From Bacteroidota bacterium (GTDB lineage Bacteria > Bacteroidota > Bacteroidia > Palsa-965), in contig JADBYT010000021.1 of NCBI GenBank assembly GCA_020402865.1, positions 7,263-71,262 of the forward strand: a stretch of DNA of 64,000 nucleotides, given 5' to 3'. A program made the translations under genes and the position numbers. Position 1 is the first letter of the stretch. Every line of letters starts with the position of its first letter. This document shows positions 29,859 through 38,350 of the stretch, one piece after another. The notes beneath the pieces were generated by a model. The model saw nothing but the letters and a program-made list of their open reading frames with translations, did no database searches and was not told the origin of the DNA.

Positions 29859-32800
29859 ATGATGCATGGCACGAACAGCGCACCCGGAAACCGCCCCGCC
29901 ATTAACAGAATACCGGTACATTTGTGCGTGCAAAATTTCACCGTTTACAAATCTTCGGCCGGATCGGGTAAAACTTTTACACTGGTAAAGGAATACCTTA
30001 AACTGGCATTGGCCGACGAGGCCGATCCGCCGCAGGTGTACAAGCATATTCTGGCGGTGACATTTACCAATAAGGCCGCGGCAGAAATGAAACAGCGTAT
30101 CATTTCGGCCCTCAAGGAATTGTCGCATGCACAGTCGGGCAAACCCTCTGCCATGGCTCAGGCGCTGGGCAGCGAACTCCTGCTCGACCCGTTTACACTG
30201 GCCGACAGGGCGCAACGTGTGCTAAAAGCAATTCTGCACAACTATACCGACTTTGCCATTGGTACCATTGATGCGTTTGTGCACAGGATTGTGCGCGCCT
30301 TTGCATTCGACCTGCACCTGCCTGTGAACTTTGAAGTGGAAACCGATGCTGACAAGCTGTTGCGGCAGGCGGTTGATCTGCTTATCGGCCGCATTGGCAG
30401 CGACGAACAGCTTACCGAAGTGCTCGTGCAGTTTGCCGAAGCCAAAACGGAAGAAGACCGCAACTGGCAAATTGAACAGGAGCTGCTCACTACGGCACGC
30501 CACCTGCTTGGTGAAGAAGGTGCTGCCAAAGCCGAGCGCCTGCGTAATCTTTCGCTGAACGACTTTCTCGGGTTCCGCGATACACTGCGGAAATCAACCG
30601 AAGCATTCAAAACCTTGATAAAACAAACAGCCGCAAAAGGTGTGCAGCACATTGAACTTTCGGGGATACCGGTTTCGGCATTTTATCACGGCAGCAGCGG
30701 AGTGCCCAAATGGTTCGACGATCTGGCCCAAGGTACGCTTGAAAAGCTGGCCGATTACAGCAGTTATGTAAAACATAGTTTCGAAGAAGACAAATGGTAT
30801 TCGGCCAAAACGCCGGCGGCGCAAAAGGCGGCAATTGATGAACTGAAGCCGCAACTCAGCGAACTGTATGCAAAGCTGCTGGCCTTACGCGATAAGCATT
30901 ACGGCACGTATTTAATACACACGCTGCTGCTGAAAAACATCTATGCCATTGCCGCACTCAACGAAATAGAAAAACTCATTTTCAGTTTCCGCGCCGATCA
31001 GAACATTGTACATATTTCTGAATTCAATCGGATTATTTCAAAAATTGTGTTTGCCGAGCCCGTGCCGTTTATTTACGAACGCCTGGGCGAACGCTACACC
31101 AATTACCTGATCGACGAGTTTCAGGATACATCGGTGCTGCAATGGCAAAACCTGCTTCCGCTCATTGACAATGCTTTGGGAGGAGGAAATTTCACGATGC
31201 TCGTGGGCGACGGGAAACAGGCTATTTACCGCTGGCGCGGCGGCGAAGTGGAACAGTTTGCCCGCCTGCCGTATGTGAAACAGGATGCCGAAAACGAAAT
31301 TATTGCTGATCGCCAGCAAAGTTTAATACGCAACTATCGCGGGTTGCAGCTTGCCCGGAATTTCAGGAGTAAAACTGAAATTGTACAGTTTAACAATGCA
31401 CTTTTCCGCTTGCTGGCGCAGGATTTAACGGCAGGCTATCAGGATATATACGATAAGTTAGAGCAGGAATCAGACACCGCCAACACAGGAGGCAGTGTGT
31501 GTATTGAGCGGCTTGTACCCGAAAAAGGCGACGACGAAAAAGAGCTTCATGTGCAGCGCACGCTTGAAAAAGTGCATGAATTACGCGCACAAGGCTGGGA
31601 ATTGCAGGACATAGCCATACTCACCCGTACCAACAACGAAGGCTCGCGCATTGCGGCGGCACTGCTTGATGCAGGTTATCCGGTTATTTCGTCGGAGTCG
31701 TTGCTCATCAGCCGCTCGCCTGCCGTTGGCTTTGTGCTGGCGGTGCTGCGCATTATCGAACTTCCGTCTGACGCGATTGCGCGCACGCAAATGCTCGGAT
31801 TCTTAGTAAATACCGGCCGTATTCACGGCACATTGCACAGCCTGCTGGAGGAAGCTGCAAAGGACGGACTCGCCGCATTACTGCAAAAGCATAACCTTAT
31901 TTTCAACGAGCTGGTACTGGCACGCATGCCTTTGTATCAGCGTTGCGAAGAAATTATTCGCCGGTTCAGACTGGATAATGAACCAGATGCCTACCTGCTT
32001 TTTTTCCTCGATGAAGTGCTGAGTTTTGGAATGGGACGGGGCAATAATCCCGCCGATTTTCTGAACTGGTGGACAGATCGCAGCTACAAGGCTTCTGTGG
32101 TAGTGCCCGAAGGCATGAATGCCGTGCGCGTAATGACCATTCACAAATCAAAAGGACTGGAATTTCCGGTGGTAATTTTCCCGTTTGCCAATTGGAAATT
32201 CGAAACAAGCCGTAAGGATTTGTGGATTGATCTGGATGACGAGGCACTGCCCGGACTGGAAACTGCAGTGGTTTCTGTAAACGAAAGTTTGCTGCACACT
32301 TCTTATGCCGCGCAATATGAAGAAGAGCGCAACAAATCGCTGCTCGATCATTTGAATGTGCTGTATGTGGCGCTTACACGACCTGAACACCGGCTTTATG
32401 TTTTTACCGGACGCAGCGGCAAAGATGCAGGCACGGAACTGAAAACAGCGTCAGACTGCTTTGCGCGTTTTCTGACAGCCACCGGCGAAGATGCTGAAGA
32501 AACCGTGTATCTTCTCGGCGAAGAAACACCACCTTCGGGGCAGCAACGCAGGCCGGGCGAGTTTTTGAACACCGGCGCTGCAAAAGTTACCGACTGGACC
32601 GAGCGCATAAGCATACGTTCACATGCCCGTGAGCTTTGGACAGACGAGAAAGAGCAGCCGGGCGATAAACACAAGTTGCTGCGCCTGCTTCTCAGTCATT
32701 GCCGCACAGCTGACGATGTGCAGGATGCTGCCCGCCGACTTGTGCTTGAAGGCGTGGCGGAAGACACACAGGCCTTTCTGCTTGCGCATGAAGCCACTCA

Positions 32801-33077
32801 ACTCATACGCCAACCCGCTTTGCAACCGTTTTTTGATGCCGCCAGCCCTATCAGCTCAAACGCCGAACTGCTGTTGCCTGCATCAGGCAGCATAAAGATT
32901 GACCGCGTAACCGACACCGGCGAAAAACTGCTGCTGCTGAATTTTGTTACAGGCATGCCCGCAAAACCGCGAAGAGAAATACTTTTGGCGGCAGCAGCAT
33001 TGGAAAAGAAGAAAAAAACAGAAGCCTGGTTGTATTTTTTGCAGGACGGGAAGTTGTGTAAGGCCACAGAGGTCTGA
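29859..33077 (+). CDS. UvrD/Rep-family ATP-dependent helicase, AddA/RecB-like (helicase-nuclease).
   Basis: 1072 aa. Walker A VYKSSAGSGKTFTL, UvrD motifs (AVTFTNKAAAEMKQR, DEFQDTS, VGDGKQAIYRWRGG, MTIHKSKGLEFPVV, VLYVALTR), and a long C-terminal extension. The true start may be downstream of 29859. Confidence 0.8.
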   Translation: MMHGTNSAPGNRPAINRIPVHLCVQNFTVYKSSAGSGKTFTLVKEYLKLALADEADPPQVYKHILAVTFTNKAAAEMKQRIISALKELSHAQSGKPSAMAQALGSELLLDPFTLADRAQRVLKAILHNYTDFAIGTIDAFVHRIVRAFAFDLHLPVNFEVETDADKLLRQAVDLLIGRIGSDEQLTEVLVQFAEAKTEEDRNWQIEQELLTTARHLLGEEGAAKAERLRNLSLNDFLGFRDTLRKSTEAFKTLIKQTAAKGVQHIELSGIPVSAFYHGSSGVPKWFDDLAQGTLEKLADYSSYVKHSFEEDKWYSAKTPAAQKAAIDELKPQLSELYAKLLALRDKHYGTYLIHTLLLKNIYAIAALNEIEKLIFSFRADQNIVHISEFNRIISKIVFAEPVPFIYERLGERYTNYLIDEFQDTSVLQWQNLLPLIDNALGGGNFTMLVGDGKQAIYRWRGGEVEQFARLPYVKQDAENEIIADRQQSLIRNYRGLQLARNFRSKTEIVQFNNALFRLLAQDLTAGYQDIYDKLEQESDTANTGGSVCIERLVPEKGDDEKELHVQRTLEKVHELRAQGWELQDIAILTRTNNEGSRIAAALLDAGYPVISSESLLISRSPAVGFVLAVLRIIELPSDAIARTQMLGFLVNTGRIHGTLHSLLEEAAKDGLAALLQKHNLIFNELVLARMPLYQRCEEIIRRFRLDNEPDAYLLFFLDEVLSFGMGRGNNPADFLNWWTDRSYKASVVVPEGMNAVRVMTIHKSKGLEFPVVIFPFANWKFETSRKDLWIDLDDEALPGLETAVVSVNESLLHTSYAAQYEEERNKSLLDHLNVLYVALTRPEHRLYVFTGRSGKDAGTELKTASDCFARFLTATGEDAEETVYLLGEETPPSGQQRRPGEFLNTGAAKVTDWTERISIRSHARELWTDEKEQPGDKHKLLRLLLSHCRTADDVQDAARRLVLEGVAEDTQAFLLAHEATQLIRQPALQPFFDAASPISSNAELLLPASGSIKIDRVTDTGEKLLLLNFVTGMPAKPRREILLAAAALEKKKKTEAWLYFLQDGKLCKATEV

Positions 33078-33099: not shown

Positions 33100-33132
33100 T
33101 AAAAAACCGGTTCCTGCAAAAGCAGAAACCGG
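33100..33132 (-). terminator. Intrinsic terminator for the caspase/TIR–STING operon (read on the - strand).
   Basis: Compound hairpin CCGGTTcCTGCaaaaGCAGaAACCGG at 33107–33132 preceded on the + strand by AAAAAAA (33100–33106), which is a U-tract on the - strand transcript. It lies 43 nt after the stop of the 33175..34113 gene. Confidence 0.55.
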
Positions 33133-33174
33133 CAGCACACAGCAATCACAAATACACATCGGAAGGAATAAGGA

Positions 33175-34113
33175 TTACTGGTGCATTGGGGTGACATGAA
33201 CTATTTTTTGGCATAACGTATCACGTGCGATGTAATGTGAAAGTACCCGGGAAAAATTATTCATTTCACGAATTATCACTTCCTCTTTTGATTCGTTATT
33301 GCCAAAATAGGTTTGGGGAAAAAGCATGTTAATGGCTGCTTCAATTGCTAAGGGCGAAGAAGGTATTATACAAAACTCAATGCGGTTATCAGGAACACGC
33401 AAGTTCCGGTATGCCGCAAATACAGCCCCTTTGCACTCACAAATTATCTTCTTCCATTTTGACTGTGAAAAAAAATAATCAACTGCCGCAAGCGTATGAT
33501 CGTGAATCGAATTGGAAACTAAAATGTGTAGTGATAACTGTTTAATGTTGGCGCCCAATGCATAATTCGGGAGGTTTTCTTTCAGATACACAACCAATGG
33601 CGAAACACAATTAATGTAATACTCATAGGCCAGCACACCCGATGAAAATTTACTCAAAGCCACATTATCCTGTTGTTTCAGAATCTGATTGCGAATAGTA
33701 TTCACCACAGAAAGTAAGCTCAATCTGTCTTCATCAGCTGCACCGGTATTAAACTTTAAAACTACCACACCATCAAGATCAGATGGCAGTTTCACCTTTT
33801 CGTCGCAAATAAGAAATGTGAAATTGTATCCTTTAGCTCCGTCGAAAAGACCAAACTCATACAATACATTATCGCGTGTTGCTGAGTAAATTTCATTTCT
33901 GTATGCTAACTTATCATCGGCCGTAGCCACAAATATCCCGAAATCATAATAGTTCAGCGATCGTTGTAGAATTTGACTTACAGTTTCACCACTTCTGAAC
34001 ACGCCTTCGTTCCAAAGTGTGGCATCGAGTTCTGGTTTAAGTAATGTTTTTACTTTTTCGGCTGCTGCGAGCCCCTCTTTCGAGGATCCGATAAATATTT
34101 TTAGTGGCACCAT
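33175..34113 (-). CDS. TIR-like domain fused to a STING-like cyclic-dinucleotide-binding domain (CBASS Cap12 / bacterial TIR–STING-like effector).
   Basis: 312 aa, ATG at 34113 confirmed. The N-terminal approx. 140 aa show the COG4271-type TIR-like pattern KIFIGSSKEG…LWNEGVF…GETV…DFGIFVATADD. The C-terminal approx. 160 aa carry SGVLAYEYYINCV…LSLHILVSNS…YRNLR…EFCIIPSSPLAIEAAINM, paralleling the STING CBD elements GLAWSYYIGYL…LYILLPLD…R238… (recalled human and bacterial STING features). The gene is AT-rich. Confidence 0.6.
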   Translation of the reverse strand: MVPLKIFIGSSKEGLAAAEKVKTLLKPELDATLWNEGVFRSGETVSQILQRSLNYYDFGIFVATADDKLAYRNEIYSATRDNVLYEFGLFDGAKGYNFTFLICDEKVKLPSDLDGVVVLKFNTGAADEDRLSLLSVVNTIRNQILKQQDNVALSKFSSGVLAYEYYINCVSPLVVYLKENLPNYALGANIKQLSLHILVSNSIHDHTLAAVDYFFSQSKWKKIICECKGAVFAAYRNLRVPDNRIEFCIIPSSPLAIEAAINMLFPQTYFGNNESKEEVIIREMNNFSRVLSHYIARDTLCQKIVHVTPMHQ

Positions 34114-34116
34114 AAA

Positions 34117-35115
34117 TCAGAACATTCCTTTTTTCGACATTTTCCAATAAAGTTTCCCGGACAAGGTAAGTTCTGCGGCCCCGTTTCTCATGGCTGCCCA
34201 GTATAAGTCTTCTTCCGGCTCGCAAGGTTTAAGCAAACCGGCATCGCGGAGTTTTTTGAACACCTTAAACTTCTTCACGTTTTCAGGATTCATAAATTCT
34301 TTCTCCGTTTCCTCCCAGCTTTTATCCATTTTCACCTTCGAATCAGGTGTAATGAATAACTCAGGAAGCCGATGTAGTTCATTTATAGTCAACCGCGTAT
34401 GTGCTTTCCGAATCAGATGCAACCGGTCTGTATGCGTTTTAAACTGCGGGCGTTGCTGCCAGGCACCAAGCATCTGATCGGCATAATTATATAAACTGGC
34501 AGCAGTAACCCGGCCAAGAATATCAGCAGCACCACCATTTAATCCATCACACAGTATTCCGGTAAAAAGCCCGCCATTGCTGTTTTCCCATGAAAGTTCC
34601 TTTGGGGAGCTTGAGGTAAGAATTGATAGGCCGGGAGAAAGCAGTGCATGTGGAATATCGAGAGATGAAAAGTTACCTAAATGACCGGCATAGCAGCAAT
34701 CCAATATCAGTGTAACCTCTTTTATTTTTCGTTTGGCGAGGGCATCATTTGCCAGCGCAAGAAGTTCGGAAACGGGAAATCCCTCATTAAATTTTTCGGG
34801 ATTCTGAGCCACAAGAAAACCTTCGAGATTATTCTCATAGCCATGTCCTGAAAAATAAAATAAAACACGGTCATCAGGTGTTCGGAACAGGTCGTGAATA
34901 TTTTCTCTCAGTTTCCTTAATGTTACATTCGTAACGGGTGAAGTAATTAGTTTACAATCATAATTTATAGAACCATCATGATGACGACTCAGTAATTTAT
35001 TCATTGCAATTGCATCAGGAACGCTTCCTTTAAGCGGTGAAGTGGCATAATCATTAATGCCAACAATTAAAGCACGGGCCATGAGTTTATGAATTAGTGT
35101 GGAAGCAAACATCAT
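34117..35115 (-). CDS. Caspase-family (peptidase C14, metacaspase/orthocaspase-like) protein with an approx. 130-aa C-terminal extension.
   Basis: 332 aa from the ATG at 35115 (the ORF track begins one codon earlier on TTG). N-terminal RALIVGINDY (metacaspase-like start), catalytic His in FYFSGHG, catalytic Cys in LILDCCYAG. Stop is 3 nt before the TIR–STING start. Confidence 0.7.
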   Translation of the reverse strand: MMFASTLIHKLMARALIVGINDYATSPLKGSVPDAIAMNKLLSRHHDGSINYDCKLITSPVTNVTLRKLRENIHDLFRTPDDRVLFYFSGHGYENNLEGFLVAQNPEKFNEGFPVSELLALANDALAKRKIKEVTLILDCCYAGHLGNFSSLDIPHALLSPGLSILTSSSPKELSWENSNGGLFTGILCDGLNGGAADILGRVTAASLYNYADQMLGAWQQRPQFKTHTDRLHLIRKAHTRLTINELHRLPELFITPDSKVKMDKSWEETEKEFMNPENVKKFKVFKKLRDAGLLKPCEPEEDLYWAAMRNGAAELTLSGKLYWKMSKKGMF

Positions 35116-35185
35116 CAAAACACATTCATAATTTTTCCTCAGTTCCCACTATTTTAAATCCTTAGAACTATGGATTTATTAAAAT

Positions 35186-35818
35186 TTAAGCTAATCCCAT
35201 TTCCACAGCCTTACGTACAAGGCCAAGTGTACCTTTCACACCAAGTTTGGCAATCAGGTTGCGGCGGTGTGTTTCAACGGTGCTGGCGGCAATAAAAAGT
35301 TTTTCGGCAATTTCGGGAGTGGTACATTCTCGGGCAATAAGGCGTAAAATTTCCTCTTCACGCCGTGTGAGTTTCACGTTTTTTATTTCCTCTTTTTTCC
35401 TTTTGCTGCTGCGTATTACAGCCATAATTTCCTGACTGAAATAAATACGCCCTGCGGCAAGTTCCTTAATAGCCAGCACCAATTGTTCAGCACCTCTGGT
35501 TTTGAGAATGTAACCCGACACGCCCACATCAATCAGTTCATCCACATGTTCTGACTGATCGGAATACGTAACAATGAGAATGGGAATATCAGGAAATTCA
35601 ATTCGCATGAGTTTGGCCACTTCAATGCCTGAAATTCCGGGCATACCAATATCAAGCACCAGTACATCGGGCATATGTGCTCTTACCAGAGGCAGCACTT
35701 CATTTCCGTTGTTTGCTTCGGCCACAATACTGATACTGTCGCCGGCAAGGCTTTTCAGTACATCATTGAGGCCATCAATAAACATTTTGTGATCGTCGGC
35801 AATAATTAAGCGTATCAT
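35186..35818 (-). CDS. LuxR/NarL-family two-component response regulator.
   Basis: The internal ATG at 35818 gives MIRLIIADDHKMFIDGL… (receiver domain; Asp in VLDIGMPG) and a C-terminal LuxR HTH (LTRREEEILRLIARECTTPEIAEKLFIAASTVETHRRNLIAKLGV). The ORF-track extension to 35914 overlaps the kinase. Confidence 0.85.
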   Translation of the reverse strand: MIRLIIADDHKMFIDGLNDVLKSLAGDSISIVAEANNGNEVLPLVRAHMPDVLVLDIGMPGISGIEVAKLMRIEFPDIPILIVTYSDQSEHVDELIDVGVSGYILKTRGAEQLVLAIKELAAGRIYFSQEIMAVIRSSKRKKEEIKNVKLTRREEEILRLIARECTTPEIAEKLFIAASTVETHRRNLIAKLGVKGTLGLVRKAVEMGLA

Positions 35819-35828
35819 AAGCGTTGGT

Positions 35829-37901
35829 TCAATGAACAGGAATATCAATTGACACGGATGTTCCGTGACCGGGTTGTGAATCGATGTGGAAAGTGGCGTT
35901 AATCTGTGTGGCACGGTTGCGCAAGCTGGTTAACCCAAGTCCTGAGCGCGACTGTGCTTTGGCTGTGTCAAAACCATTTCCATTGTCTTCCACCATAAGG
36001 TTAATATTTCCATTTTGGCGCTGAAGCTGAATTGTAACTTCCGACGCATTGGCATGACGCAAAATATTGGCCATGAGTTCGCGCACGATTTGATAAATAT
36101 TAAACTCGGTAGCTCCGTCGAGCCTGCTGTTCAGGCCGTTTGCATGAAACTCCACCTGAAGTTTATTGAGGCCGTTAATGTTATTGCATAAATTCTCAAT
36201 GGCTCTCACTAATCCGAAGGTTACCAGTTCGCCTTTATGCAAATCAGCCGCCACAAGCCGCACTTCTTCACAGGCCTCGTCGAGTATTGAATTGGCTTTT
36301 TTCAGTTTTTCAAGTTCTTCGGCCGACAGGCTTCCGGCCATATTTTCCATTAAGTTGTAATACAGTTTTGCGGTAGAAAGTTTAACACCGAGGCTATCGT
36401 GCAGATCCTGAGCAATTCGTTGCCGTTCTTTCTCTTGTGTTTCAAGCATGGTTTGAACGGCCAGTTGTTCCTGGTTGCTAAGCAGGTCTTCAATTTGCTT
36501 TTTGCTTTGCTGATTTCGTTTCTCTACAATCCGGTTTCGATACAATGCAAAAAGAAGGATGAGCAGTAAAATAATTATTACCGTCAGTGCAAGAACAATC
36601 AGATTAATTCGCTCGATGCGGGCTTTCTGATGGTCTCTTTCCTTTTCTAATAAAATTCGTTTTGCCTGCTCCTCCTTGTAAGCGATGGCAATTTCAGAGG
36701 CTTGCTGCGAAATATATTCAAGTGTATCGCGGAGTGCTCCTCCGCTTGCAGCATATCGAAAAGCCTCTGAATAGTTTTGCTTTCTGGCGTGAGCCTCGGA
36801 AAGGCAATCGCTAATTTTCTGAAGCAGAAACAAGTCTCTGATTGAAGCGGCTACTGAATCGGCTTTTACCAGATTTAAAATTGCCTCATCATATTTATTC
36901 TGCCTGATCAGCAACCGGCCAATATTAAAGTAGCAAAGCGAAAGCCCCTGTGCATAATTGGTTTTCTGATTAAACTCAAGCGATTTTCGTATATAGGCAT
37001 CAGCCTGCGAATATTCCCCTTCTTTCTCGTAATACTGGCTGATATTGATCTGCACCACAGCTAATTTATTTTCGAGCTTTAAATCAGAATAAATCGAAAT
37101 AGCTTTATTAAACGCATTTAAAGCAACAGTATCACGATTTTCCTTGAGGTAAATTCCGCCAAGATGGTTTAGTATTTCGGCCTGATATTTCTTGGTTTTA
37201 AATGTGTTGGCAATCAGCAGTGCTTCTTCAAACACACCAGCAGCACGGTTGTTTAAATTTTGTCGTTCATACACCTGCCCCATTCCCTGCAGGGCTTTAA
37301 ACCGCATAAGGCTGTCGTTTATTCGCTCAGCAGTATCGAGTACCTGCTGATAGAATGATAATGCTTTGGGATAATTGGAACGTTTCAAATGAATATTTGC
37401 GGCTCCTACCAACGCCTGCACCATTTGCTCCTTTTTATCAGGCATTGTGCCCCATATCCGGGCAGCTTCATTGGTATAATGTAACGCAGAATCATAGCTG
37501 CCTCTGTTTTTCAGGATAACTGAAAGCATATATCGGTCTCGCGCCATGCCGTGCATGTACTTGGCATTATCATCAATTGCCTTTGCGTTACGGTAGTAAT
37601 AAATTGCCGAATCGGTATTGCCGGTATTTTCAGCCAAACGCGCATACTGACAATAGGCATCGGCTTTGAGTAACCGGGTTTGTGGTGTGCCAGCCTGCGC
37701 AATTACCTGCCGAAGTATTTCGCGGCTCTTTGCCGGATCGCCCTCGCGCAACGCATAAGCACTATCAAGATTGCGGGCCAGTCTGGCTGAATCAGCAGAA
37801 ACGGAAACAGCTGACGAAGGCTGATCAGACTGTGTACAGCCTGAAAGTGATACAATAAAGCTGCAAGGAATAAATAGAAGTATAAACAAGATAAATTGCA
37901 T
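35829..37901 (-). CDS. Sensor histidine kinase with a periplasmic/N-terminal TPR array, one TM helix, HisKA_3 and HATPase_c domains.
   Basis: ATG at 37901 (MQFILFILLFIPCSFIVSLSGC, lipoprotein-like signal). Multiple TPR-like repeats, TM LIVLALTVIIILLLILLFAL, H-box RIAQDLHDSLG, ATPase motifs (MVEDNGNGF, GLGLTSLRNRATQI). Followed 10 nt later by the LuxR regulator. Confidence 0.8.
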   Translation of the reverse strand: MQFILFILLFIPCSFIVSLSGCTQSDQPSSAVSVSADSARLARNLDSAYALREGDPAKSREILRQVIAQAGTPQTRLLKADAYCQYARLAENTGNTDSAIYYYRNAKAIDDNAKYMHGMARDRYMLSVILKNRGSYDSALHYTNEAARIWGTMPDKKEQMVQALVGAANIHLKRSNYPKALSFYQQVLDTAERINDSLMRFKALQGMGQVYERQNLNNRAAGVFEEALLIANTFKTKKYQAEILNHLGGIYLKENRDTVALNAFNKAISIYSDLKLENKLAVVQINISQYYEKEGEYSQADAYIRKSLEFNQKTNYAQGLSLCYFNIGRLLIRQNKYDEAILNLVKADSVAASIRDLFLLQKISDCLSEAHARKQNYSEAFRYAASGGALRDTLEYISQQASEIAIAYKEEQAKRILLEKERDHQKARIERINLIVLALTVIIILLLILLFALYRNRIVEKRNQQSKKQIEDLLSNQEQLAVQTMLETQEKERQRIAQDLHDSLGVKLSTAKLYYNLMENMAGSLSAEELEKLKKANSILDEACEEVRLVAADLHKGELVTFGLVRAIENLCNNINGLNKLQVEFHANGLNSRLDGATEFNIYQIVRELMANILRHANASEVTIQLQRQNGNINLMVEDNGNGFDTAKAQSRSGLGLTSLRNRATQINATFHIDSQPGHGTSVSIDIPVH

Positions 37902-37984
37902 GGAAAAGAAATAATGTGGATATGGGAGTTCATACTTATGAACTCCCATAACAGATTGAATGGATCGTGAGGGCATTGGCTGCA

Positions 37985-38350
37985 TTACACAAAAATGATG
38001 GGGCGAACCTGATCTTCATTATCGCCCTGACTCACCACCACATTTACGCTGGCAGAAGAAAGCAGTGTGCTGCCATCCTTTACCATTACATTAATTTCAC
38101 GGGTGGTGCTGAAATCAATGGCTGTTACAGGAATCTGATGGTTTACAAGCGATGCCTGACGCAGCGCAGTGCTGTTTTGCGTTACATAAGCAGTAACTTC
38201 AACCGGATTAACTGTAAGATCGGCTGGCAGTGCGTAGGATTGCGCCACATAGCCCGATTTTGAAAACAGTGAGGTCAGGTAAAGGTAGTGTTCAGTACTA
38301 CCATTTACAGCTTTAGTTACAAGCTGAATAACAGGGTTTTGCATTGACAT
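37985..38350 (-). CDS. Hypothetical protein, possibly spurious.
   Basis: The ORF-track ORF starts on a non-ATG codon. The first ATG gives MSMQNPVIQLVTKAVNG…, about 121 aa, Ser/Thr/Val-rich with no recognisable motif. My coordinate count is ±1 nt uncertain here. Confidence 0.25.
   Translation of the reverse strand: MSMQNPVIQLVTKAVNGSTEHYLYLTSLFSKSGYVAQSYALPADLTVNPVEVTAYVTQNSTALRQASLVNHQIPVTAIDFSTTREINVMVKDGSTLLSSASVNVVVSQGDNEDQVRPIIFV

Follow-up and report, generated by a model that had tools for sequence, protein, structure and literature searches.

A TIR-STING gene encoding a protein of 312 amino acids (aa) lies at positions 33175..34113, on the (-) strand, of a 64,000-nucleotide (nt) stretch of DNA from a Bacteroidota bacterium (contig JADBYT010000021.1), which is referred to here as the window. 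On the basis of sequence comparison, this protein is a bona fide fusion of TIR and STING that derives from Cap12, an effector of CBASS, the antiphage signaling system based on cyclic oligonucleotides, and the gene immediately upstream of it encodes a caspase-like protease that is a full-length member of the type IV Thoeris effector (ThsE) family. The ATG of the TIR-STING gene is located 3 nt past the caspase stop codon, on the same strand (-). To date, bacterial STING has been described as the receptor for c-di-GMP in CBASS. The literature searched pairs TIR-STINGs with CD-NTases only and ThsE with none but short TIR proteins; the two come together at this locus. The CBASS-derived TIR-STING probably serves as the TIR partner of the type IV Thoeris caspase, by a mechanism that we infer below, and the evidence tips slightly towards a TIR-STING that is uncoupled from any cyclase and works together with the caspase.

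The open reading frame (ORF) list places the ATG of the TIR-STING gene at 34113 and the stop codon at 33175-33177, and the same gene is called on the public contig SRR12871546_665. The N-terminal TIR (NADase) domain (aa 1-125; 33739..34113, (-) strand) matches the Pfam family CAP12-PCTIR_TIR (PF10137), which represents the CAP12/Pycsar type, at aa 5-122 (E = 4.3e-28); this is the sole TIR family matched, and no ThsB_TIR match was detected in the protein at E <= 0.1. The NAD+-site residues of SfSTING, namely F6, S10, W33, L47, R78, N80, E84, and D110, are all kept in the window protein and in its three close relatives (P0001, P0002, and P0003, which together with it form the subclade discussed here). 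These include the catalytic Glu86 (codon 33856-33858) and the trans-acting Asp112, the equivalents of E84 and D110, respectively; the roles of the active-site residues in the SfSTING TIR domain have been described (PMC9402430). A linker helix (aa 126-155; 33649..33738, (-) strand), modeled by AlphaFold2 (AF2) as a helix at aa 133-148, is the least conserved segment of TIR-STING in the subclade, with 23-47% identity to P0003 and P0002. The remainder of the protein is a STING-fold domain (aa 156-312; 33178..33648, (-) strand), assigned from fold matches and from the Pfam family prok_STING (PF20300), which is matched at aa 160-291 (E = 4.6e-10; 40.1 bits, where the gathering score is 27.1).

Over its full length, the protein matches the PADLOC model for CBASS TIR effectors (PDLC00729; E = 1.5e-71) and, in a phmmer search of the PDB, the TIR-STING structures 9lmq (ElSTING; E = 7e-35) and 7un8 (SfSTING; E = 1.4e-26), while the STING domain by itself matches the cyclic dinucleotide-binding domains of bacterial STINGs (8hwj, 7ebd, 7ebl, 8hwi, and 6wt5) in a PDB sequence search. 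An AF2 model built from 109 homologs (predicted local distance difference test [pLDDT] 88; predicted template modeling score [pTM] 0.82) was matched by Foldseek to the cryo-EM structures of TIR-STING filaments 9lmq, 9lmr, and 7un8 with TM-scores of 0.80-0.85, and also to isolated STING ligand-binding domains of bacterial (8hwj, 7ebl, and 7ebd) and human origin. A STING fold in the 312-aa protein is thus virtually certain, with Pfam, the PDB matches, and the AF2 model agreeing far beyond chance. A preliminary description of positions 33175-33720, which correspond to aa 132-312 plus the stop codon, had recognized a STING ligand-binding domain of about 160 aa that is of the bacterial kind in having no C-terminal tail; this is borne out by the predicted structure, whose fold is not unrelated to STING, and by the measured extent of the domain, which is 157 aa and runs to the C-terminus. 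The N-terminus is occupied by the soluble TIR domain, and both the four-transmembrane domain and the C-terminal signaling tail of the metazoan type are absent.

The residues that contact c-di-GMP in bacterial STINGs, the roles of which have been described (PMC8748872; PMC9402430), are replaced in the window protein. The stacking Phe/Leu (SfSTING F165 = MySTING L169 = PcSTING F171) aligns with Cys169 (33607-33609), the lid Arg of the RX(Y/F) motif (SfSTING R234 = MySTING R230) with Ala230 (33424-33426), and the guanine-N2 Asp (SfSTING D259 = MySTING D251) with Ile249 (33367-33369), all codons being on the (-) strand. The lid aromatic residue is retained as Phe232 (33418-33420; MySTING Y232), as are the structural invariants Tyr165 and Pro251. 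Three pairwise alignments (with 9lmq, 7un8, and 7ebl) and two MAFFT alignments concur on this residue mapping. In the main alignment, which comprises the window protein, its three close relatives, 105 canonical TIR-STINGs, SfSTING, and ElSTING, 105/105 canonical TIR-STINGs carry F, R, and D at the positions of SfSTING F165, R234, and D259, respectively; in the second, which comprises 52 full-length sequences that represent a diverse set of 50%-identity clusters, the lid Arg is present in 50/52 and the guanine-N2 Asp in 51/52 (the exception being Glu). The four subclade members have C/C/Y/T at the stacking position, A/A/N/R at the lid position, and I/I/I/L at the Asp position. The pocket is shifted to hydrophobic residues yet constrained, with Tyr165, Tyr235, Pro251, and Ser253 invariant in the subclade. 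The filament salt-bridge residue SfSTING E290 was also considered as a diagnostic loss; it is invariant in the 105 canonical proteins but replaced by K, L, V, or I among the diverse representatives, and it was dropped.

These positions bear directly on the motifs named in the preliminary description. All four peptides quoted there are found in the translation of 33175-34113 (-): SGVLAYEYYINCVSPLVVYL at aa 158-177, LSLHILVSNS at aa 194-203, YRNLRVPDNRIEF at aa 235-247, and EFCIIPSSPLAIEAAINML at aa 246-264. Judged by alignment and consensus, three of the four motif assignments stand: the stem/dimerization helix was placed correctly, the beta-strand motif corresponds to the canonical KFxILIPxDL strand, and the core helix motif corresponds to the canonical DIPxT...AIEMY strand-helix. 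The fourth was misplaced, as the true lid-Arg position is Ala230, and the Arg residues of YRNLRV lie farther on, Arg236 along beta-strand 3 and Arg239 in the loop after it. The c-di-GMP pocket that this assignment implied likewise lacks support, with Cys169, Ala230, and Ile249 standing where the c-di-GMP contacts belong.

An ordinary CBASS effector, that is, a Cap12 TIR-STING reading a cyclic dinucleotide whose source is a CD-NTase or GGDEF cyclase encoded elsewhere in the genome, with the caspase as a mere defense neighbor, would account for the full-length homology to Cap12, the retention of the STING fold and lid hairpin, the preservation of Phe232, Tyr165, and Pro251, and the presence of a lid Arg in P0003. 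The same explanation has to accommodate the replacement of three contact residues that are invariant in the canonical proteins, two of them (R and D) near-invariant even among the diverse representatives, and a failure at the curated Cap12 equivalog cut-off: the window protein scores 193.8 and 164.2 bits on the NCBIfam equivalogs NF050172/NF050171, under the 450-bit cut-off, whereas the canonical TIR-STING P0004 scores 480 bits on the NCBIfam Cap12 equivalog. It is very likely that the protein is not a canonical c-di-GMP/CBASS effector.

The genomic setting also speaks against an ordinary CBASS effector. Pfam annotation of the called genes, which span ~2.5-64 kb of the window, revealed no CD-NTase, and neither did a tblastn search in which one CdnE from the control locus L013 was compared with the window and with every related locus; the sensitivity of this cyclase search is that of one CdnE query plus Pfam, and within the genome its coverage is that of the window. 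Canonical TIR-STINGs, in contrast, abut their CD-NTases: in the control locus, which encodes P0004 (the closest canonical protein, 30% identity), the two genes have a start/stop overlap and are part of a defense island containing restriction-modification, HipA, and AbiC genes. The genes around the window cassette are housekeeping genes, encoding SurE, LpxB, SpoIID, a CoA ligase, and cargo proteins of the type IX secretion system, and do not constitute a defense island. Taken together with the 3-nt coupling to the caspase gene, which is kept in all four known members of the subclade, these observations make the ordinary CBASS effector highly unlikely.

The association of this TIR-STING with a caspase is rare and conserved. 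A word-indexed search of 5.8 billion proteins recovered only P0001 (95% identity), P0002 (57%), and P0003 (43%) as close relatives; past those three, identity falls to ~30%, the level of canonical Cap12 proteins. When a STING-only profile was run against 1.84 billion cluster representatives in an exhaustive HMMER search, only P0002 and P0003 fell below E = 1e-30, and the next match was at 2e-15. Metagenome contigs yielded no further subclade members, only canonical TIR-STINGs at <=32% identity or TIR-only proteins. The subclade is monophyletic and has a long stem in a neighbor-joining tree built with no outgroup. A caspase gene is located immediately upstream in every known relative (P0001, P0002, and P0003), and thus in 4/4 subclade members, whereas none adjoins a canonical TIR-STING or PycTIR gene in 80 metagenome loci (0/80). 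Conversely, STING hidden Markov models searched against the 379 ORFs neighboring 80 caspase loci matched only in L017, which belongs to the P0003 lineage. This pairing makes functional coupling of TIR-STING to the caspase likely. No earlier description of a TIR-STING with a caspase, of a cyclase-less TIR-STING, or of a STING lineage without the Arg and Asp contacts was found in the literature searched.

The caspase-like protease gene (34117..35082, (-) strand; ATG at 35082, stop codon at 34117-34119) encodes 321 aa, as it is also called on public contigs, and matches Peptidase_C14 in Pfam (E = 8e-18). In an alignment of 40 sequences, the dyad residues His80 (34843-34845) and Cys130 (34693-34695) are invariant, and a conserved C-terminal domain of ~90 aa (~aa 231-321; 34120-34392, (-) strand) has invariant residues as well. 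H80, C130, and, among others, W208, Q210, R211, P212, K215, R225, F243, and E257 in the C-terminal part are common to the protein and its 39 aligned homologs, which share 42-94% identity and are conserved over their full length, including the C-terminal domain. The AF2 model (pLDDT 89.8) matches the folds of MALT1 and caspases; a sequence search of the PDB gave no match at E <= 0.01, and the fold search returned generic caspases and MALT1 only, so that neither search yielded a solved ThsE with which to compare the C-terminal pocket. Membership in the ThsE family follows the genomic neighborhoods of the homologs. Among 80 caspase-homolog loci drawn from species-representative genomes of many phyla, 61 carry a neighbor from one cluster of the ThsB type; in this cluster of 79 proteins, 68/79 match ThsB_TIR (PF08937) and 28/79 match TIR_2. 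The homolog in Paenibacillus is flanked by two ThsB_TIR genes.

In type IV Thoeris, infection causes the TIR protein to make N7-cADPR, which activates the caspase-like protease for indiscriminate cleavage, probably by acting through the protease C-terminal domain (bioRxiv 10.1101/2024.10.24.620036); the effector has been named ThsE (10.64898/2025.12.03.692087). The sole TIR-domain gene adjoining the caspase in the window is that of TIR-STING. The preliminary finding mentioned neither the CAP12-type TIR domain, nor the absence of a CD-NTase, nor the translationally coupled caspase, three features that alter the likeliest function of the protein.

Several arrangements at the other caspase loci are recorded here as separate observations. 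In Paenibacillus polysaccharolyticus (L011, 5571-10173), a type IV Thoeris unit (ThsB, caspase, ThsB) lies in a TIR-rich island that also encodes two further TIR proteins, one of the CAP12 type with 361 aa and one of the TIR_2 family with 522 aa, followed by a GGDEF kinase-like gene. In L031 (3581-7189), the genes after a ThsB TIR and a caspase encode proteins of 354 aa and 398 aa. The 398-aa protein consists of a CAP12-type TIR domain (PF10137) and an unassigned C-terminal region of ~250 aa without a STING signal; it is a second instance of a CAP12-type TIR near a ThsE caspase. A family of ~160-180 aa with no Pfam match (cluster 2; e.g., L018, 1956-2438) is encoded directly downstream of the caspase in 9/80 loci and is usually accompanied by a ThsB TIR. 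The 8xMP family (PF24838, "octameric membrane protein") is encoded immediately 3' of the caspase in L048 (4979-5488) and L055 (4949-5380), both of which are kinase-linked, and also near the caspase in L047, L051, L066, and L091; another partner or effector may be represented by this protein, and a literature search on 8xMP returned nothing relevant.

The caspase and TIR-STING genes form part of a larger cassette, in which the genes for a 119-aa protein (unk119), a TPR histidine kinase, a LuxR regulator, the caspase, and TIR-STING are placed, in all relatives, between a GNAT gene and the UvrD, SurE, and LpxB genes. In the comparison of the window with the related locus L002, synonymous divergence (dS) is 0.06-0.24 across the cassette (unk119 to TIR-STING, 33175-38344) and 0.45-0.88 in the flanking GNAT, UvrD, SurE, LpxB, and SpoIID genes. 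Because dS is low in the cassette and higher in its flanks, the cassette appears to have been exchanged as a unit among related genomes. Divergence is concentrated in TIR-STING: relative to L004, identity is 84-88% for the housekeeping proteins and 83% for the caspase, and just 43% for TIR-STING (54% in the TIR domain and 37% in the STING domain). Relative to L009, the flanks are ~90% identical, the kinase 44%, the regulator 71%, and the caspase 51%, and TIR-STING is absent; no TIR-STING remnants were found in the caspase-to-UvrD gap of L008, L009, or L010. The TIR-STINGs of the window and L002 differ by 17 amino-acid changes, 16 in the STING domain, 1 in the linker, and 0 in the TIR domain, and the ratio of nonsynonymous to synonymous divergence (dN/dS, omega) of the STING domain, calculated from small counts, is ~0.35 for this pair; 42 positions are invariant in the subclade. 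The STING domain is thus kept but is the part that changes fast, which fits a sensing domain.

Upstream of the caspase, the cassette encodes a LuxR/NarL-type response regulator (35186..35818, (-) strand; 210 aa as called; Response_reg and GerE), a TPR-sensor histidine kinase (35829..37985, (-) strand; 718 aa) with a lipoprotein-like N-terminus, TPR repeats, one transmembrane segment, HisKA_3, and HATPase_c, and the 119-aa protein (37985..38344, (-) strand), whose gene overlaps the kinase start by one base and which has no Pfam match. The divergence of the 119-aa protein follows that of the cassette and kinase, not that of the flanks (84% identity in L004, 46-50% in L008 and L009), and the protein probably has an accessory role in the two-component system. 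Two candidate regulatory elements are located between the regulator and caspase genes. The first, a GATGTTTG box (35106..35113, (-) strand) situated 23 nt 5' of the caspase ATG, is invariant across six orthologous regulator-caspase intergenic regions and is a candidate Bacteroidota -7 promoter element, with an apparent likeness to the consensus TAnnTTTG. The second, a ATCCATAG-TT-CTAAGGAT dyad (35158..35175, (-) strand) located 10 nt past the response-regulator stop codon, is a candidate LuxR-type operator; it is unique in the window, where 0.03 chance matches are expected, and its symmetry is kept with other bases in L004 and L009. A sigma-70 promoter scan gave 13 sites against 11.5 expected and was not informative. 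At the opposite end, 42 nt past the TIR-STING stop codon, a strong intrinsic-terminator-like hairpin (33106..33133, (-) strand; a 12-bp stem with 7 GC, then TTTTTT) is read from its sequence features as the point where the caspase/TIR-STING transcription unit ends; a UvrD-like helicase gene (29859-33077, (+) strand) is convergent with this unit.

Full-length homologs of both the TPR kinase and the LuxR regulator occur beside caspase homologs in 9/80 genome loci, all from Bacteroidota: L017, L023, L033, L048, L055, and L058, in which the genes are on the same strand, and L056, L073, and L093. The downstream partner of the caspase in kinase-linked loci varies, being TIR-STING, ThsB TIRs, a TIR_2 protein, an 8xMP membrane protein, or none. 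This recurrent linkage suggests two-component control of caspase modules. It also speaks for a degenerate sensor, in which the STING domain would be a ligand-free scaffold for dimerization or filament formation and two-component transcription would set caspase/TIR activity, as in a regulated suicide or stress module. Such an explanation is in keeping with the loss of polar ligand contacts, with the promoter-like box and dyad, and with a cassette that is chromosomal, syntenic, and co-inherited with the kinase and regulator, but it sits poorly with a STING domain that is full-length and non-neutral in its omega and invariant positions, with the clustering of amino-acid changes in that domain, as expected where a domain meets a changing target, and with the kept C-terminal invariants of the caspase, which argue for persisting ligand gating. 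We regard a degenerate sensor as quite unlikely.

In the mechanism that we propose for a cyclase-uncoupled TIR-STING, the remodeled STING domain would still dimerize or oligomerize the protein, prompted by something other than c-di-GMP from a cyclase, for example a different nucleotide or a phage-derived trigger, and this oligomerization would switch the TIR domain on. The product that the TIR domain makes from NAD+, N7-cADPR-like or another ADP-ribose (ADPR) derivative, would then bind the conserved C-terminal domain of the caspase, releasing the ligand-bound protease for indiscriminate proteolysis, and the NAD+ consumption by the TIR domain may itself contribute to growth arrest. The neighboring TPR histidine kinase and LuxR regulator probably govern transcription of the caspase/TIR-STING pair. 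That TIR-STING acts upstream of the caspase and generates its signal is conceivable, with chances rated somewhat below even. The proposal in its entirety is more tentative still: a STING fold that no longer reads a cyclase-made cyclic dinucleotide would be the sensing or oligomerizing module of a signal-producing TIR that activates a caspase-like executioner, in a natural CBASS/Thoeris chimera under two-component transcriptional control.

A number of observations weigh against this proposal. Characterized TIR-STINGs hydrolyze NAD+ to ADPR and nicotinamide, and no cyclic signaling product has been reported for them (PMC12421889); the 312-aa CAP12-type TIR-STING also differs from the TIR partner in Thoeris, which is a short (~135 aa) ThsB_TIR protein. 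P0003 keeps the lid Arg, and a phosphate contact could come from Lys228, so that some cyclic nucleotide might bind, and the AF2 model, whose alignment is dominated by canonical homologs, is silent on pocket chemistry. The counts behind the dN/dS value are small, and a CD-NTase, GGDEF, or ThsB gene may sit in the genome beyond the 64-kb window. Finally, three sister loci (L008, 6001-7345; L009, 6001-7228; L177, 5200-6424) have a cassette of kinase, regulator, and intact caspase at the same chromosomal position with no TIR-STING, and no other TIR gene was found in these loci of ~12 kb. The caspase is therefore not obligatorily dependent on an adjacent TIR.

An external activator of the caspase, as these sister lineages imply, would suit an arrangement in which TIR-STING and the caspase are parallel or serial effectors: both would read the signal of an unlinked TIR, with the STING pocket binding an ADPR-type molecule, or an Arg-specific caspase acting upstream would cleave TIR-STING to activate its NADase. 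The TIR domain does belong to an NAD+-depleting effector class, and the pocket is hydrophobic yet constrained, in its invariant residues as in its omega. Cleavage, however, is at odds with type IV Thoeris of Pseudomonas, in which the TIR protein is not cleaved by the caspase (bioRxiv 10.1101/2024.10.24.620036), and by inspection the linkers of the four proteins show no conserved Arg; a second TIR gene is absent from the cassette and from the annotated window genes. Parallel or serial action is accordingly judged unlikely.

The TIR-STING/caspase locus is rare, and the case for it is at present wholly computational. If the chimera exists as proposed, it would provide a new ligand or trigger for STING and would mean that CAP12-type "effector" TIRs are able to generate signals. 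Binding of another molecule or of a phage component by the remodeled STING domain would extend the range of ligands known for this fold and would show how immune modules are re-wired between signaling systems; three features typical of innate immunity in animals (STING, TIR, and caspase) would stand together in a single bacterial operon. The substitutions in the pocket (C169, A230, and I249) constitute a directly testable hypothesis, and the linkage of type IV Thoeris caspases to TPR kinases in Bacteroidota suggests transcriptional gating of an abortive-infection system.

The window protein can be compared with several known systems. With metazoan STING (human TMEM173), it shares a homologous ligand-binding fold (Foldseek E = 1e-5 to 1e-7) in which the motifs of the stem helix, central strand, and core helix match, in line with the preliminary description; unlike metazoan STING, it has no transmembrane domain, C-terminal tail, or lid-Arg equivalent, its lid is two-stranded, and its effector domain is a TIR. 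Pycsar PycTIR and the CAP12-family TIR effectors (8jsj) share its PF10137 TIR domain, with 8jsj matching aa 5-134 (E = 4.9e-17), but the window sensor is a STING fold rather than a cyclic-mononucleotide-binding domain and has no adjacent cyclase gene. The window protein resembles CBASS Cap12 and the bacterial TIR-STINGs (SfSTING 7un8, ElSTING 9lmq, PcSTING, and MySTING 7ebd/7ebl) in its two-domain architecture of ~310 aa, in its CAP12-type TIR domain with all NAD+-site residues, among them the catalytic Glu and the trans-acting Asp, and in its tail-less STING fold, at 25-32% identity over the full length. It differs from them in having Cys, Ala, and Ile for the stacking Phe, lid Arg, and guanine-N2 Asp, in lying outside a defense island with a caspase rather than a CD-NTase as its operon partner, and in falling under the Cap12 equivalog threshold in its own long-stemmed monophyletic group. 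Type IV Thoeris (ThsB + ThsE; bioRxiv 10.1101/2024.10.24.620036 / Rousset et al., Science 2025) differs from the window locus not only in its TIR partner but also in gene order, its TIR gene being usually upstream of the caspase gene and that of the window downstream, and in that the window cassette is chromosomally syntenic and under apparent two-component control. The likeness between the two resides in a two-gene operon of TIR and caspase, in a conserved His/Cys dyad, and in a window caspase that is 36-47% identical, over its full length and including the putative N7-cADPR-binding C-terminal domain, to the caspases flanked by ThsB.

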